A DNA stretch of 64,000 nt from an uncultured Planctomycetaceae bacterium (GCA_964536835.1 CAZIAZ010000001.1:49525-113524), one strand, 5' to 3'. Counted from the first letter of the stretch, positions 1,785-48,657 are shown. The notes: generated by a model from the sequence alone, not told the origin. Numbers and translations are program-made.

Positions 1785-1950
1785 AGCATGCTCTGATATG
1801 TTGTTCGTAATTCTACGGTTTTTAGAAAAGTTGCCTGATAAAAGAATATTTTTTTGAGAACCGCGGTAAGCCATAGATGAAAGTATCCGCCGTCAGACGG
1901 ATATGCGAAAGGTTTGATAAATATGATGCTACGGGTTTTAGCCCGTAAAG
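1783..1950. repeat. Hairpin-rich modular intergenic repeat, inverted copy, between pilM and pilN
   Basis: The reverse complement of 1840-1950 aligns nearly base-for-base with 16790-16880 (tacgggYtaaaacccgtagcatcata...ccgYctSacggcggatactttcatcta). The segment aaaaaccgtagaattacgaa is shared with 16871-16890. The gagaaccgc module is also shared. Confidence 0.7.
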
Positions 1951-2046
1951 ATTTGTTTTTTATGCTGATTATGGCTGTTTGTAGCGTTGGGCTGGCCATA
2001 AATAAAATAGCCCGATTTGAAGACATTAATCACTGGCGGTACCGGA

Positions 2047-8115: not shown

Positions 8116-8222
8116 CAAAAGCCCCATAACCGATTATTTTCGCAAAGATTAACGCCCCGTATTGACGCCTGATTTTGAGCAGGAATCTGTTGCATATTGC
8201 CGGATTATATGTAATACTTAAG

Positions 8223-8374
8223 GCAGTTCTTGAAAAAATGTTCCATTTGGCCTTGCTGTAAGGTTTTTCGACTACGCCCGTCTGCATCGGAAACCATATA
8301 AGGTTGCCTGCTTCGACGTCCTTGTCAGAAAACCTTTAGCTGGCGTCAAAAAAGAAAAAACTTTCAAGAACTGC
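8223..8374. repeat. MITE-like palindromic intergenic element with a conserved 34-nt core
   Basis: 13-bp terminal inverted repeats gcagttcttgaaa (8223-8235) and tttcaagaactgc (8362-8374) flank the core ctgcatcggaaaccatataaggttgcctgcttcg (8283-8316). That core is identical to 27160-27193. Confidence 0.65.
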
Positions 8375-8405
8375 TCTAGCGAAGGTAAAGGAAGGAATTC
8401 AGAAT

Positions 8406-8775: not shown

Positions 8776-10635
8776 TTACATTTTTCTGCTTTTTTCCAAA
8801 ATATCTTTCAATTCGTCGCAGACTTTTTCGACCTGTCTGTCTTTAAGGTTGAGTATGTCTTTCAATGCCTGGCCGATGGCCGGGATGTATTTCTCTATGT
8901 AGCTGCGTTTTTTGAGTTCCTGCCTGATTCGGGACGTTTTACGAATATGCGCTCCCAGTTTTCTGCCGCATTCCTGGAGAGCGAGTCTTATTTCCTTCAA
9001 AATATCGGGATACGATGCGATAGCCTCTTTTGATTCGCTCGTAAAGGGGACCCACACGCTGCCCATATGTATGACTATGGTCAAATCGCCAGCCGGCAGG
9101 GCACCGCGGCTCTGTGAGAGGCCATACTTGCGCCAGCTCATCTGTGCCACGCTTTTGTAAATCGCGCATGCTCCCTGCTGATACTGCAGCGGCACACGAT
9201 TGGCGAGGCGGAGCACTCGCGCCAGAGAATCTCCGCCATTGTCGTCATCGGCCGACGTCGCGTCATCATTATCGTCGTCATTTTCGGTTTCATCAAGCAG
9301 GGTTTGCTGCTGTTGCGACTGGCAGGCTGGATTTTTGCCGTATGCGATAGCCGCTTCTATGACGAACGGATTGCCGCGATAGACCGCCGGCTTGCGCGAG
9401 ATGGCGGCGTAAAATTCCGCGTCGACCACCTGTTTTAATCCGGCAATCAACTGTTCGTGGCCGATGGGCACGATGCAGTCCGTATTCGGCGCGAGTATTT
9501 TGACGTCGTTTATTGCGACGTGGAGTGCTCTGGCCTTATCGCCGTCGACGCCCGCTGGCCGTGTTTTTGGAGTTAGACCCATGCCTGCTTTTTTGATTAT
9601 CTCGTCGGCGAGCTTGGGCGAGATGCGGGAAAATTCGCTCGTGAAAAACTGCTGCAGATTTTTAGCAGTCGTATCCTGGAGCATTTTTATGAAAACGCCC
9701 AGTTCCACTCCATGCGGATGGGGCTTGATTTCCTTGGGGATTGCGGGCAGTTCCATGACCGAGGCGGTGTAGGAAATATCGCGTCCGTCCGGCGTTTTAT
9801 ATTTGAATGTAACATGAGGATTTGCGACGGCCGTCTGCTGGAGATATTCATCTACGCTCTGGCGGCCTTTCTGATAGCGGGCTTCCAGCTCTATCTCCAC
9901 GCAAGTGCCGTGTTCCGGAGCCCAGTCGACGATTTCATCCGCGAGGATTTCCGGTTTGTTATTTCGCGTGTCGATTTTAAGCGTATATGAATGAGCCGGC
10001 GAGCGTTTGCCTGTGCGGCTGATGATTTTGACCGGCTTGCCCGTAGTCAAAAGGCCATACATGCCGGCTGCGGATATGCCGATACCCTGCTGGCCCCTGC
10101 TCATCCTCAGCCTGTGAAATTTACTCCCGTAAAGCAGTCTGCCGAAGATATTGGGTATCTGCTGCCTGACGATGCCAGGGCCGTTATCCTGTACCATGAC
10201 CCGAAAATGCGTCTCGGAAATCTGGTCAATGGCGACTTCTACCAGGGGCATTATGCCGGCTTCTTCGCAAGCATCCAGCGAGTTGTCAACCGCTTCTTTT
10301 ACCGTGGTCAGCAAAGCCTTTCTGGGATTGTCGAATCCCAGCAGATGGCGGTTCTTGGCGAAAAATTCGCTTACCGAAATACTCCGTTGAGCCTTGGCCA
10401 TGGATTCCGCCGTAGCATATTTCTGCTTCGCCGATTTTCTTTTCGTTACAGGCGAGTGTTCTTCCGTTTCTTCCGGAAGTTGAGGATTGGAGGGTGGTGT
10501 TTTTTTGCTTATCCGTTTGGCTTTAGCAGGTTTTTCCGCCACAGTTGACGATTCGGCGGTCACCTGGTTGTCGTCGAAAAGAAATCCTGTTGCGTCTTTT
10601 TTTGAGGTTTTTGTGTTGGGGGCTTTTTTGGCCAT
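8776..10635 (-). CDS. top6B: DNA topoisomerase VI subunit B (Top6B), with a basic H1-like N-terminal tail and an acidic insert
   Basis: GHKL Bergerat-fold motifs: EAVDNSLDA (N box), DNGPGI (G1), SRGQQGIGISAAGMY (G2). Also the Top6B-specific RLANRVPLQYQQGACAI, an H2TH region, and a transducer with conserved Lys. AAGGAG sits 7 bp upstream of the ATG. Confidence 0.85.
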   Translation of the reverse strand: MAKKAPNTKTSKKDATGFLFDDNQVTAESSTVAEKPAKAKRISKKTPPSNPQLPEETEEHSPVTKRKSAKQKYATAESMAKAQRSISVSEFFAKNRHLLGFDNPRKALLTTVKEAVDNSLDACEEAGIMPLVEVAIDQISETHFRVMVQDNGPGIVRQQIPNIFGRLLYGSKFHRLRMSRGQQGIGISAAGMYGLLTTGKPVKIISRTGKRSPAHSYTLKIDTRNNKPEILADEIVDWAPEHGTCVEIELEARYQKGRQSVDEYLQQTAVANPHVTFKYKTPDGRDISYTASVMELPAIPKEIKPHPHGVELGVFIKMLQDTTAKNLQQFFTSEFSRISPKLADEIIKKAGMGLTPKTRPAGVDGDKARALHVAINDVKILAPNTDCIVPIGHEQLIAGLKQVVDAEFYAAISRKPAVYRGNPFVIEAAIAYGKNPACQSQQQQTLLDETENDDDNDDATSADDDNGGDSLARVLRLANRVPLQYQQGACAIYKSVAQMSWRKYGLSQSRGALPAGDLTIVIHMGSVWVPFTSESKEAIASYPDILKEIRLALQECGRKLGAHIRKTSRIRQELKKRSYIEKYIPAIGQALKDILNLKDRQVEKVCDELKDILEKSRKM

Positions 10636-10684
10636 CCGTGGCTCCTTCGGTCCGTATATTCGTACAACGTATTTATAAGATTTT

Positions 10685-10886
10685 CATTTGTCCGTCTATC
10701 GGTGGACATTTTTATCTATGCTTTTTTAAAAAAACGGAAAATTACGACAGGCATATCAAAATTTTTTACGCGTTAAAACCGTTTAGAATCATATTTGTCA
10801 GGCTTTCGTTTATCTGCTTGTCGGGGGATATTTTTATCTATGTTTTTTAAAAAAACCGGAAAATTACGACCGTCATATTAAAAACT
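10685..10886. repeat. Two tandem copies of a ~85-bp hairpin-rich repeat unit (same family as 16750-16913 and 1783-1950)
   Basis: Copy 1 runs 10689-10762 and copy 2 runs 10798-10886. Both match caggctttcg…ggRgataYttTcatctaYgKttttaaaaaaCCGgaaaattacgaMNgNcatatYaaaa and align to 16815-16905. Confidence 0.7.
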
Positions 10887-15207: not shown

Positions 15208-16725
15208 ATGGCTGAAGTTAACGTTATGGAGCAGATAGTGTCGCTGTGCAAGCGGCGTGGTTTCGTGTTTCCCGCGTCCGAGATTTACGGCGGGATTAAC
15301 GGTTTTTGGGATTACGGCCCGTTGGGCGTACAGCTCAAAAACAATATCCGCGACTGGTGGTGGCGGTGTATGGTCGAGTGTCCGCCCATCGGCCCTGACG
15401 GCCATCCAGTGCAGATTGTCGGCCTTGACAGCGCGATAATTCAGAACCCACAGACTTGGGTAGCCTCCGGCCACGTCGGCGGATTCAACGACCCCATGGT
15501 CGACTGCCGCGAGTGTAAATCCCGTTTCCGCGCAGACCATGTTGCCGTCGTTGCGTTCAATAAAAGCGACGAACTCGTTATAGCAGTCGGCGTCGAAACA
15601 ACCAGCGAGGAAACCGCCGTCGCCGACGCCCTGGCCGCCATGAACTCCAAAAACCGACGCCGAGTCGAACAGGCTGGCGATGAAATTTCCACGACTATAT
15701 TCATGGCCGACAAAATGCCCGACGGTGTCAAGGCACTTTGCCCCAAATGCGGCGGAGAACTCACCGAGCCGCGCATGTTCAATCTCATGTTCGAGACTTA
15801 CGTCGGTGCAATCCGCAGCGATGAGGCCAAAGCTTATCTGCGTCCGGAAACGGCACAGGGCATTTTCCTGAACTATAAAAACATAGTCGACACCATGCGC
15901 GTTAAAATGCCGTTCGGCATTGCGCAAATCGGCAAAAGTTTTCGCAATGAAGTCACGCCCCGAAATTTCATCTTCCGCAGCCGCGAGTTCGAGCAGATGG
16001 AAATGGAATGGTTCTGCCAGCCGGCTGACGCCCGCGTCTGGTACGATTTTTGGAAAGAACAGCGCATGAACTGGTGGGAATCGCTGGGCATAGAAAAATC
16101 CCGCCTGCGATATCGTGACCACGACAAAGAAGAGCTGGCCCACTATTCGCAAGCCTGCGTGGACGTGGAATATTTGTACCCGTTCACATCGCCGGATTTC
16201 GGCGAACTGGAGGGCATTGCGCATCGCGGCAATTTCGACCTGACTCAGCATCAGACGCATTCAAAGGTCAAGATGGAATATTTCGACCAGGACACGAACG
16301 AGCGGTACATTCCGCACGTTATCGAGCCGGCTAGCGGCTTGACCCGTGCCGTGCTCGTGCTGCTTTGCGAAGCGTTTACGCCGGACGCCAACCGCCCCAG
16401 CCAGATGTTTTTCAAATTCAAGCCGAAATTCGCTCCCATAAAAGCCGCCATCCTGCCGCTCGTCGCCCGCGACGGCATGCCCGAAGTAGCCGAAAAACTC
16501 TACCTCGCCCTGCGTGACAGACATATCGTACAACTCGACGTCAAACAGAACATCGGCAAACGTTATGCGCGGCAGGACGAAATCGGCACGCCGTTCTGCT
16601 TCACCGTCGACGGCCAGACCATGCAGGACAACACCGTCACCGTTCGCGACCGCGATACGCTTGAACAGACCCGCATCAATCTCGACCAGGTCGAAAAATT
16701 CCTGGCCGACAGAATCGCCGAATGA
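15208..16725 (+). CDS. glyQS: Glycine--tRNA ligase, homodimeric type
   Basis: N-terminus LCKRRGFVFPASEIYGGINGFWDYGPLG is a GlyRS class-II hallmark. 505 aa. Confidence 0.9.
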   Translation: MAEVNVMEQIVSLCKRRGFVFPASEIYGGINGFWDYGPLGVQLKNNIRDWWWRCMVECPPIGPDGHPVQIVGLDSAIIQNPQTWVASGHVGGFNDPMVDCRECKSRFRADHVAVVAFNKSDELVIAVGVETTSEETAVADALAAMNSKNRRRVEQAGDEISTTIFMADKMPDGVKALCPKCGGELTEPRMFNLMFETYVGAIRSDEAKAYLRPETAQGIFLNYKNIVDTMRVKMPFGIAQIGKSFRNEVTPRNFIFRSREFEQMEMEWFCQPADARVWYDFWKEQRMNWWESLGIEKSRLRYRDHDKEELAHYSQACVDVEYLYPFTSPDFGELEGIAHRGNFDLTQHQTHSKVKMEYFDQDTNERYIPHVIEPASGLTRAVLVLLCEAFTPDANRPSQMFFKFKPKFAPIKAAILPLVARDGMPEVAEKLYLALRDRHIVQLDVKQNIGKRYARQDEIGTPFCFTVDGQTMQDNTVTVRDRDTLEQTRINLDQVEKFLADRIAE

Positions 16726-16749
16726 TTTTTTATGTTATGCGATAAACCA

Positions 16750-16913
16750 TAGCGGCTCTCTAAAATTTTTTGAGAACCGCTATAATCAATAGTGAATCTC
16801 TACGGGTTAAAACCCGTAGCATCATAGTCATCAGGCTTTCGCCTGTCCGCCTCACGGCGGATACTTTCATCTACGGTTTAAAAACCGTAGAATTACGAAG
16901 GACATATTAAAAC
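16750..16913. repeat. Hairpin-rich modular intergenic repeat (reference copy)
   Basis: Contains perfect hairpins tacgggtt-aa-aacccgta and ctacggttt-aa-aaaccgtag, plus agcggctctc…gagaaccgct. Homologous to 10685-10886 and to the inverted copy at 1783-1950. Confidence 0.7.
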
Positions 16914-16965
16914 TTACAATTTTGTCGCGCGAAGTAAAAAATTGGGGAAATATTGAGCAATTTGC

Positions 16966-27034: not shown

Positions 27035-27096
27035 CCGGCTTTCAAAATTTCCGCCCAGCCGGCCACTCTTGTAGATGTCATCGAGTTTTTCCCCAT

Positions 27097-27257
27097 TAGA
27101 GCATATTAAACTTGACTTTGCGCTTGTTGCTGTTTGCGGCGTCGGCTGGCTGCGTCAGGCTGCATCGGAAACCATATAAGGTTGCCTGCTTCGCCTTCCT
27201 TGCCAGCCTCGTCCTCAACGACGCAACAAGTCGCAATTTCAAATTTAACATGCTCTA
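27097..27257. repeat. Palindromic intergenic element with the same conserved 34-nt core as 8223-8374
   Basis: A long imperfect inverted repeat, tagagcatattaaacttgactttgcgcttgttgc (27097-27130) against gcaacaagtcgcaatttcaaatttaacatgctcta (27224-27257). The core ctgcatcggaaaccatataaggttgcctgcttcg lies at 27160-27193. Confidence 0.65.
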
Positions 27258-27339
27258 AAAAATCCAAGTGGTATTTTTCTGAACGATAATATAACGTTTT
27301 TTAAAAATTACTTTCCTCTTAAAAAAATATTTTAACCTG

Positions 27340-40838: not shown

Positions 40839-40871
40839 GAGCAGTTCTCAAAAAAATTTTGAGAACTGCTC
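40839..40871. repeat. Perfect 13-bp-stem hairpin (gagcagttctcaa / ttgagaactgctc) with tagagca terminus
   Basis: Read directly. The terminus motif tagagca is shared with the elements at 27097, 1783 and 8362-8376 (reverse complement). Confidence 0.6.
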
Positions 40872-41037
40872 CAGATTCGAACCGGTGTCGTCATCTGCAT
40901 TTTCCGGCATAATATTTCATCGTACGGAAATTCGCTTTTACTGTTTTTTAAAAATTTTAAATTTAAAATTTTAAAAAACGGTTTTTACGTATATCGCGAT
41001 GGCAGTCTGACCGGAAACGCATGCAGACGACATTGAT

Positions 41038-45752: not shown

Positions 45753-45906
45753 TCATATATCTCCAAATTTTTTACTTTTTTAATAACACCTCAAAATGAC
45801 GGATTCACTTTACCAGACCTGATAACGCAAATTGTTCACTTTGAGAATTTTTTTAAATCTTTAAATTTAAATTTTGAAAAATTTAAAAATTTACAATTTT
45901 AAAAAA

Positions 45907-48158: not shown

Positions 48159-48657
48159 TTGTCCTGCCTTCCAAAATCCTTTTCCCCATACTTCATATTA
48201 AAGTATAGGTCTCATACGATAAATTAATGATAACAAAGAAATTGTTAAATACAATAATTTTTAACATCTTTAGAATAAACATGTTATGTTTTATATGCAG
48301 CGTTTTAGTTAAAAACTTACCCCAAACATCCGTCAGTCGCAACTTGCACGGCTGCCGGAAACCAAGTTTTAGCCTTATTTTAAAGGATTCTCAGCAATAA
48401 ACTTAATTCCAAAAAAGGTCTCCTTTTAAATCTTACACGTTTTCAGCCGCCAGCCTAATCAGCGTAATAGTTAAAAATAATTTACATAACTCCTTATTAT
48501 ACAAGGTCCGATATTTTTTCATGGTATTTTTGTTAACAGGCTTATTCAAACAAAAAAACCGCAGGCAACCACGTTCAGGGATAATTCAAAATCGGGGAAC
48601 ATTTTCAGCCCGATATCATCCAAGTATTTAGATGTGTATTTTAAGGAGACAGCGAAA

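Follow-up and report, generated by a model that had tools for sequence, protein, structure and literature searches.

The hairpin-rich repeat found between the genes of this 64,000-nucleotide stretch (hereafter the window, meaning the whole of the DNA that was analysed) probably represents a family of non-autonomous IS200/IS605-type elements, each 115 nt long, resembling the PATEs and 'mini-IS605' elements. The family is new in its sequence and in its host, an uncultured Phycisphaerae bacterium, and known in kind. An earlier description, made from the sequence only (the sequence-only reading), had recognized a dispersed, hairpin-rich, non-coding mobile repeat with four related copies, and in this general sense it holds. 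All four copies are present where they had been placed, and the names proposed for the neighbouring genes (pilM, pilN, top6B, DUF502 and glyQS) are supported by precomputed Pfam matches on identical public contigs, namely PilM/PilN, Topo-VIb_trans, DUF502 and tRNA-synt_2b (glyQS), the last followed by carA.

Within the window, which has a G+C content of about 51%, a degenerate 21-nt core, CGGNGGAYAYTTTYATCTAYG, matches four times, with 0.00 matches expected from 100 shuffles. The pattern search places these matches at 1872-1892 on the minus strand and at 10700, 10822 and 16855 on the plus strand. A de novo repeat search recovered the same copies, which headed both its direct families and its inverted pairs (D1, D2, I1, I2 and I5). 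An nhmmer profile which was built from canonical copies and run on the window detected all four, as follows:

16792..16906, minus strand: canonical copy (c3) in the glyQS-carA spacer, its ends being the limits of conservation; nhmmer match 16789-16911, E=4e-45.
10762..10877, minus strand: decayed copy (c2) with the left flank TTTTAA at 10878-10883, found by repeat search, nhmmer and alignment; nhmmer match 10766-10882, E=2e-16.
10655..10755, minus strand: decayed copy (c1) with the left flank TTTTGA at 10756-10761, its right boundary approximate; nhmmer match 10661-10760, E=8e-9.
1797..1956, plus strand: old long-variant copy (c4) in the pilM-pilN gap, its top strand being the window's plus strand, supported also by alignment; nhmmer match 1793-1953, E=1e-22.

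The similarity between these copies does not collapse under proper statistics. The 16.8-kb copy and the pilM-pilN copy are 86% identical over 80 nt (blastn, E=7e-13), the two tandem units are 87% identical to each other over 63 nt (blastn, E=3e-12) or 80% over 92 nt when aligned without gaps at a period of 122, and a gapped alignment of the 16.8-kb copy with the second tandem unit gives 75% over 117 nt (E=2e-16). A search of the window for tRNA and tmRNA genes returned none.

The four copies differ in age. The copy after glyQS is presumably a recent insertion, and the tandem pair between topoVIB and DUF502 and the copy between pilM and pilN are old, decayed insertions. The tandem units are arranged head-to-tail, with the period of 122 corresponding to 115 nt plus the target, and retain 3-5 pairs in each hairpin. 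They had been described as overlapping the 3' end of the DUF502 gene; an overlap exists, limited to the conserved 6-nt TTAAAA flank at 10878-10883, where 10878-10880, inside the left flank of c2, is the DUF502 stop codon TAA read on the minus strand. Both ends of the pilM-pilN copy are degenerate (left flank CTGA where the canonical flank is TTAA, right end TTGT where the canonical end is TCAC), and judging by these ends it is probably immobile; its locus is the same in four other assemblies.

Next to the tandem pair, window positions 8776-10635 encode a full-length homologue of DNA topoisomerase VI subunit B in a bacterial host. Its closest relative beyond an identical protein from a Phycisphaerae metagenome-assembled genome (MAG) is 74% identical, and because thousands of homologues at 62-74% identity occur in Planctomycetota and Phycisphaerae, the gene is a feature of the lineage and no recent transfer. 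Three loci of TopoVIB relatives (54 kb in all, 67-74% identity) contain no copy of the element, and in a relative in which DUF502 and topoVIB are adjacent the 113-nt spacer lacks it.

The anatomy of the element can be read from the copy after glyQS. The sequence-only reading had proposed a unit of about 85 bp, which falls short of the actual 115 nt (16792-16906) and the conserved 6-nt flank. On the top strand, the window's minus strand, the copy reads 5'-TATGTCCTTCGTAATT[CTACGGTTTTTAAACCGTAG]ATGAAAGTA[hp3][hp2]ATGACTATGATG[CTACGGGTTTTAACCCGTAG]AGATTCAC-3', preceded by ...TTTTAA and followed by T. Its parts are, in top-strand order:

16907..16912, minus strand: conserved flank and target TTTTAA, abutting the left end; cleavage on the left (site C_L) is predicted for the final TTAA, which is not part of the element.
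16891-16894, minus strand: predicted guide G_L, AATT, the 4 nt 5' of the foot of IP_L.
16871..16890, minus strand: left-end palindrome IP_L (previously 'ctacggtttaaaaaccgtag'), 16 nt from the left end; a predicted hairpin on either strand.
16832..16863, minus strand: internal hairpins hp2 (CAGGCtttcGCCTG) and hp3 (TGTCCGCCtcacGGCGGATA), given in plus-strand letters, just 3' of IP_L on the top strand.
16820-16823, minus strand: predicted guide G_R, GATG, the 4 nt 5' of the foot of IP_R.
16800..16819, minus strand: right-end palindrome IP_R, 8 nt from the right end.
16792-16795, minus strand: predicted right cleavage site C_R, TCAC, inside the element.

Four hairpins can fold on either strand, two of them near-identical 20-nt palindromes near the ends and two short and G+C-rich in between; the latter, hp2 and hp3, are partly kept in the relics. 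Predicted folding energies are -45.8 and -46.7 kcal/mol as RNA (z=-7.1 and -5.8) and -28.8 kcal/mol as DNA (z=-7.1). Both palindromes, on the top strand CTACGGTTTTTAAACCGTAG for IP_L and CTACGGGTTTTAACCCGTAG for IP_R, are perfect, with CTAC and GTAG forming the outer stem pairs, and both loops are T-rich on the 5' side and A-rich on the 3' side, which sets the palindromes in a head-tail arrangement. The module 'tacgggYtaaaacccgta', which had been noted as an addition in some copies, is an integral part of the element, namely its right-end palindrome. The extreme ends, TATGTCC... and ...GATTCAC on the top strand, form no terminal inverted repeats, and the sole inverted similarity of the element ends comes from the internal palindromes. 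At the junctions, TTAA|TATGTCC...CTACGG... on the left and ...CCCGTAGAGATTCAC|T on the right, the exact position carries a 1-nt ambiguity (A/T) on both sides. The foot of IP_L is possibly one pair longer, in which case G_L would be TAAT.

Copies are not limited to the window, and 14 or more intergenic sites lie outside it. A metagenome scan with the 21-nt core returned 37 loci, 19 of them with the repeat. One of these (L055) is the window's own pilM-pilN locus; at the other 18 the unit is about 95-99% identical to window positions 16788-16912 and the flanks are unrelated, with 14 distinct left and 14 distinct right flanks. Eighteen copies measure 115 nt and a single copy 114 nt, and both limits fall at the same nucleotide in every copy. 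The family has thus amplified recently, and its dispersal is intergenic throughout: every canonical copy lies between genes, be it upstream, downstream, or between convergent or divergent genes, and in either orientation. Seven copies lie no more than about 100 nt from the end of a contig, where a repeat that breaks short-read assemblies would be expected. Repeat-bearing contigs of at least 2.9 kb correlate with the window in tetranucleotide composition at r=0.92-0.97 (loci with chance hits reach at most 0.65, with one at 0.82), and from this shared signature they derive from the same organism or very close kin; a pilM identical to that of the window is present in two of the repeat-bearing samples.

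Profile searches uncovered many decayed fragments besides the canonical copies, and 74 kb of contiguous genome holds one canonical copy and four relics. Terminal-only derivatives with a single hairpin occur at L050 1806-1842 and L053 4531-4572. A decayed long-variant copy (L084 20292-20442) is situated on the sense strand of the rplQ-rpoA gap, about 6.8-6.9 kb past the right end of the window, within a normally compact and highly conserved operon. At L064 570-830, about 100 nt from a canonical copy, a 40-nt unit (TTGTTTAAAAACCGTTAGATTACGGTTGACGTATTAAAAA) that resembles the left-end module with its TTTTTAA target is repeated in tandem at least seven times. Beyond the source organism, the 21-nt core found no family member in a collection of 185,579 species representatives, its 22 matches being chance matches, three of which represent one paralogous coding motif in an Acidobacteriota MAG. 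Scans of viral contigs with the core and with a palindrome pattern yielded single chance matches only, and BLAST searches of plasmids and phages with the unit gave no match.

The flanks reveal a short target on one side. On the left, TAA precedes the element at 14 of 14 distinct loci and TTAA at 12 of them, which resembles the targets of IS605 (TTTAA/TTTAAA; PMC2993954) and of the IS200/IS605 elements of S. islandicus (Sulfolobus; TTTAA). On the right, the base after the end is T at all distinct loci and the remainder of the flank varies: at 13 loci it starts with TTTT, TATG, TAAA, TATA, TATT or TACG. The frequency of TTTT (7/13) could reflect a longer target or another mechanism. Judged by these flanks alone (left ...AA, right T..., 13 loci), insertion appears to proceed without duplication of the target.

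Nested copies fix the boundaries independently of conservation. In two cases (L050/L054 and L080), a young copy sits exactly between the TATGTCC... start of an older, diverged copy and that copy's TTTTAA, and nothing is duplicated. The TTTTAA now precedes the young nested copy, as would be expected of an element that inserts 3' of a short target and so keeps the target at its own left flank. In the head-to-tail copies at L056/L076, as in the tandem pair of the window, each copy has its own TTTTAA or TTTTGA.

With the boundaries set beforehand by conservation and nesting, the element ends can be compared with those of IS608, whose transposase TnpA binds subterminal hairpins on one strand (PMC3201880). 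In IS608, cleavage on the left occurs at TTAC, which is external to the element and precedes the hairpin foot by 19 nt; on the right it occurs at TCAA, an internal site that follows the foot by 10 nt. Both sites are recognised through pairing with guide tetranucleotides located 5' of the feet, AAAG and GAAT, respectively (PMC3201880). A+16 pairs with T-3 and A+17 with T-4, that is, G1:C2 and G2:C1 (PMC5934647). Either end of IS608 shows a further complementarity, between base 4 of the guide and base 4 of the cleavage site. This G4:C4 pair is reportedly part of the IS608 rule, as described by Barabas in 2008. In the element studied here, AATT with TTAA gives A:T, A:T and T:A at G1:C2, G2:C1 and G4:C4, and GATG with TCAC gives G:C, A:T and G:C at the same positions. 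Hence, all six of the IS608 pairing positions are Watson-Crick pairs, which would arise by chance with a probability of about (1/4)^6, and of less than 1% even if a few alternative registers are allowed for. On the opposite strand the rule fails, with an unconserved left flank and with TCAT and CATA unpaired. The relic at L053 4531-4572 combines the guide AACT with the flank TTGA; its three pairs are kept, and position 3 has changed on both sides (T/A to C/G). As a single case, this apparent covariation gives a hint in favour of the pairing rule.

Together, these features would be explained by an element that consists of a fused left end and right end only and is moved by an enzyme which, like the chemistry on single strands, we infer. 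A Y1 (HUH) TnpA encoded elsewhere in the genome would act in trans, binding both subterminal hairpins of the top strand in its single-stranded form and cutting after TTAA in the left flank and after TCAC at the right end, with base pairing to the tetranucleotide before each hairpin foot (AATT on the left, GATG on the right) setting the position of the cut. The excised strand would form a circle and re-insert 3' of another (T)TTTAA, preferably before a T and without target duplication. The sequence-only reading had suggested searching for an IS200/IS605-type transposase of the TnpA(REP) kind; a Y1 enzyme of the IS200/IS605 type is indeed what such a search should aim at. In the window and the other loci (about 0.4 Mb), no Y1 transposase, RAYT or full-length insertion sequence with these ends was found. 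Likewise, tblastn with IS200 TnpA and the E. coli RAYT against the window and L047-L083 (38 sequences, about 0.3 Mb) returned nothing better than E=0.4. Any effect on neighbouring genes, such as the polarity suggested for the pil operon or hairpins in pil or rpoA-rplQ transcripts, is conjectural and would be a by-product.

The main rival, which we consider unlikely, holds that the repeat is a REP/BIME- or REPIN-like element kept by a domesticated RAYT (TnpA_REP), with the palindromes as REPs and hp2/hp3 as their linker. Such elements are likewise short, intergenic, hairpin-based and clustered or in tandem, and the unit is about the size of a BIME-1. The right junction CAC|T contains the C|T dinucleotide preferred for RAYT cleavage (PMC3333891), GTAG-type REPs are known in Planctomycetes (PMC3733652), and the stems contain CTAC...GTAG. 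However, REPs are imperfect palindromes of 20-40 nt, and their GTAG is unpaired and lies directly 5' of the hairpin foot, whereas here the palindromes are perfect, GTAG is paired in the stem, and the feet are preceded by AATT and GATG. BIMEs and REPINs moreover combine a REP with an inverse iREP, head-tail dimers being rare, but here the palindromes are direct, both hairpins carrying their guide 5' on the same strand. A unit of constant length (115 nt) whose ends are asymmetric and which has its target on one side only follows the pattern of IS200/IS605 elements, and the REP/BIME label given to the repeat earlier does not fit it.

A more speculative reading, to which we would give a small chance, adds a guide RNA to the transposon. 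Many PATEs encode an omega-RNA, and the top-strand transcript, with its four hairpins ending at the right boundary, could be read into the flank as a minimal omega-RNA-like guide scaffold. A TnpB or IscB nuclease encoded elsewhere could then use this scaffold, with TTTAA as its TAM, to home the element. If so, the element would be among the smallest guide-RNA-bearing PATEs; we know of none described in its phylum. Taken together with this reading and at the same low odds, the small palindromic repeat described below may specifically invade PATE hairpin loops by analogy with the haloarchaeal SMR-A repeats.

It is very improbable that the repeat is a conventional MITE dependent on a DDE transposase, one that duplicates a minimal target (TA or A) and has imperfect inverted repeats near its ends (GTGAATCTCTACGG / CCGTAGAATTAC). 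The arrangement ...TA|GTGAAT...GGACA|TA fits a TA duplication in 6/13 copies and in the nested cases, and there is inverted similarity between the two ends. This similarity arises because both hairpins are palindromic, however, and 16 more nucleotides are conserved beyond it at one end only. Furthermore, the other side carries AA and not TA in 7/13 copies, the outermost bases (TATGTCC vs GTGAATC) do not form an inverted repeat, and TTTTAA is found on one side only. Without terminal inverted repeats and target duplication, the MITE label of the TIR type, which had also been suggested, does not apply.

Least credible of all is the view that the copies are genes for a structured RNA, or cis-regulatory RNA modules (an sRNA, terminator or stabiliser), which selection maintains and which are not mobile. 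Its attractions are the strong folding (z = -5.8 to -7.1) and the copies which lie on the sense strand inside operons (pilM-pilN and rpoA-rplQ). Against it, copies are found in all orientations and settings, convergent gene pairs among them, the hairpins of older copies are lost and their wobble pairs show no bias towards one strand, and near-identical copies in unrelated flanks, together with nesting and absence of the element from relatives, speak for transposition. No Rfam family matched even at E up to 10 among credible hits: nothing in the window reached the gathering score, and 16700-16960 gave noise only (E>=1.4, <=16 bits). A comparison of G:U with C:A in the relic hairpins showed no strand bias and therefore no evidence of an RNA function, and a promoter and terminator scan of the glyQS-carA spacer found nothing attributable to the element above shuffle expectation. 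CRISPR, integron attC, retron, group II intron fragment and IS91/Helitron-like ends were rejected for want of matching end motifs or neighbouring genes.

What had been taken as modular shuffling, typical of REP/BIME-like or MITE-like elements, has another origin. The module 'gagaaccgc' does not belong to the element but stems from another small palindromic repeat that is unrelated to it, AGAGCAGTTCTC-loop-GAGAACTGCTCT, so that the differing order of modules results from two nested repeat families and not from rearrangement. Two occurrences of it adjoin or interrupt the copies in the window:

16751..16781, no strand assigned: solo small repeat (AGCGGCTCTC-taaaatttttt-GAGAACCGCT), adjoining the copy after glyQS and outside the region common to 14 or more copies.
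1824..1867, plus strand: insertion of about 44 nt in the IP_L loop of the pilM-pilN copy, a decayed copy of the small palindromic repeat according to alignments.

The same insert occupies the same position in the copies at L074 1106-1262 and L084 20292-20442, and by sequence these two and the pilM-pilN copy make up an older 'long' sub-family, in which the small repeat is nested in the left hairpin loop. Relatives of the small repeat are present at 40839-40872, at L080 6902-6945 and at 1783-1794, where a minimal form, AGAGCATGCTCT, directly follows the pilM stop codon; besides its nested occurrences, the repeat is also found solo downstream of genes.

Other repeats share the intergenic space. 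A second dispersed family consists of an element of about 162 nt with TIRs TAGAGCAT...ATGCTCTA and a conserved core, CTGCATCGGAAACCATATAAGGTTGCCTGCTTCG; it is found at window positions 27096-27258, with a diverged relative at 8222-8392, at L050 686-851 (97.6% identical) and at L082 1-179, where the copy itself has a nested insert. The right flank of the L050 copy consists of the 3' half of a PATE left-end palindrome and its tail. Low-complexity A/T repeats (TTTAAAATTTTAAATTTAAAATTTT...) occupy two intergenic regions immediately before gene starts, at 40931-40977 and 45835-45905, and can be matched to each other in either orientation. At 48159-48633 there is an unusually long (475 nt), A+T-rich intergenic region without a recognised element, and the 2 kb around it have a G+C content of 45.5%, compared with about 52% elsewhere.

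The identification of the element provides a precise annotation for sequences in the pil operon, in rpoA-rplQ and after glyQS that would otherwise be mistaken for regulatory hairpins or sRNAs, and it explains the assembly breaks at element copies in the source organism. It further illustrates that the IS608 guide and cleavage rule can be read from a 115-nt element in a distant phylum, where it predicts the target (TTAA|T) and the active strand without a transposase in hand. The second layer of small repeats in hairpin loops extends a pattern so far mainly haloarchaeal. The current understanding of the element class is unchanged.

Among known systems, high-copy REP/BIME repeats and their RAYTs share with the family the intergenic hairpins, the occurrence as pairs with a structured linker and in tandem clusters, and the (presumed) processing of single-stranded DNA by a Y1 HUH enzyme (PMC3333891, PMC3733652); they differ in that the element has no unpaired GTAG, direct hairpins, and a fixed asymmetric unit with a one-sided target. 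The resemblance to IS608 and IS605 concerns the predicted cuts, on the left outside and upstream of IP_L and on the right inside and just after IP_R, and the 4-nt guides 5' of the feet, whose predicted pairing with the cleavage tetranucleotides uses the three positions known from IS608. The spacings, the base preference after the cut and the extra hairpin 3' of IP_L recall IS608 or ISDra2; in IS608, a second hairpin lies 3' of IP_L (PMC5934647). The spacings are 16/8 nt here and 19/10 nt in IS608, the third guide base is T here and A in IS608, and the palindromes are perfect with no extrahelical T seen, whereas those of IS608 are imperfect. The target resembles the TTTAA/TTTAAA of IS605. Protein-less elements mobilised in trans have been described as mini-IS605/606 in H. 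pylori (PMC2993954), and similar ones in Geobacillus stearothermophilus (PMC10055086); of each end, mini-IS605 elements retain 100-150 bp, as against a total of 115 nt for the element described here.

The closest parallel is with the PATEs of Haloquadratum walsbyi (PMC3119063) and Geobacillus stearothermophilus (PMC10055086). PATEs are without terminal repeats, have near-terminal palindromes, cause no target duplication and are too short to encode a transposase (PMC3119063). The distance of their palindromes from the ends is 'longer at the 5' end', and families above 90% identity are called 'homogeneous' (PMC3119063). Correspondingly, the family described here lacks TIRs, has similar palindromes at both ends at distances of 16 nt (left) and 8 nt (right), shares with PATEs a short target oligonucleotide that adjoins the 5' end and not the 3' end, appears not to duplicate this target, is too short for a protein at 115 nt, and would count as 'homogeneous' at about 95-99% identity. 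Its terminal derivatives with a single palindrome are paralleled by 52-bp PATEs, which arise by deletion between the two palindromes (PMC3119063). It is distinguished by its own sequence family and host, an uncultured member of the Phycisphaerae (Planctomycetota), and its 115 nt lie at the small end of the PATE range. In both systems, other small repeats invade the near-terminal palindromes, and the nesting of the small repeat in the left hairpin loop is reminiscent of the SMR-A repeats of haloarchaea, which target the palindromes of PATEs.
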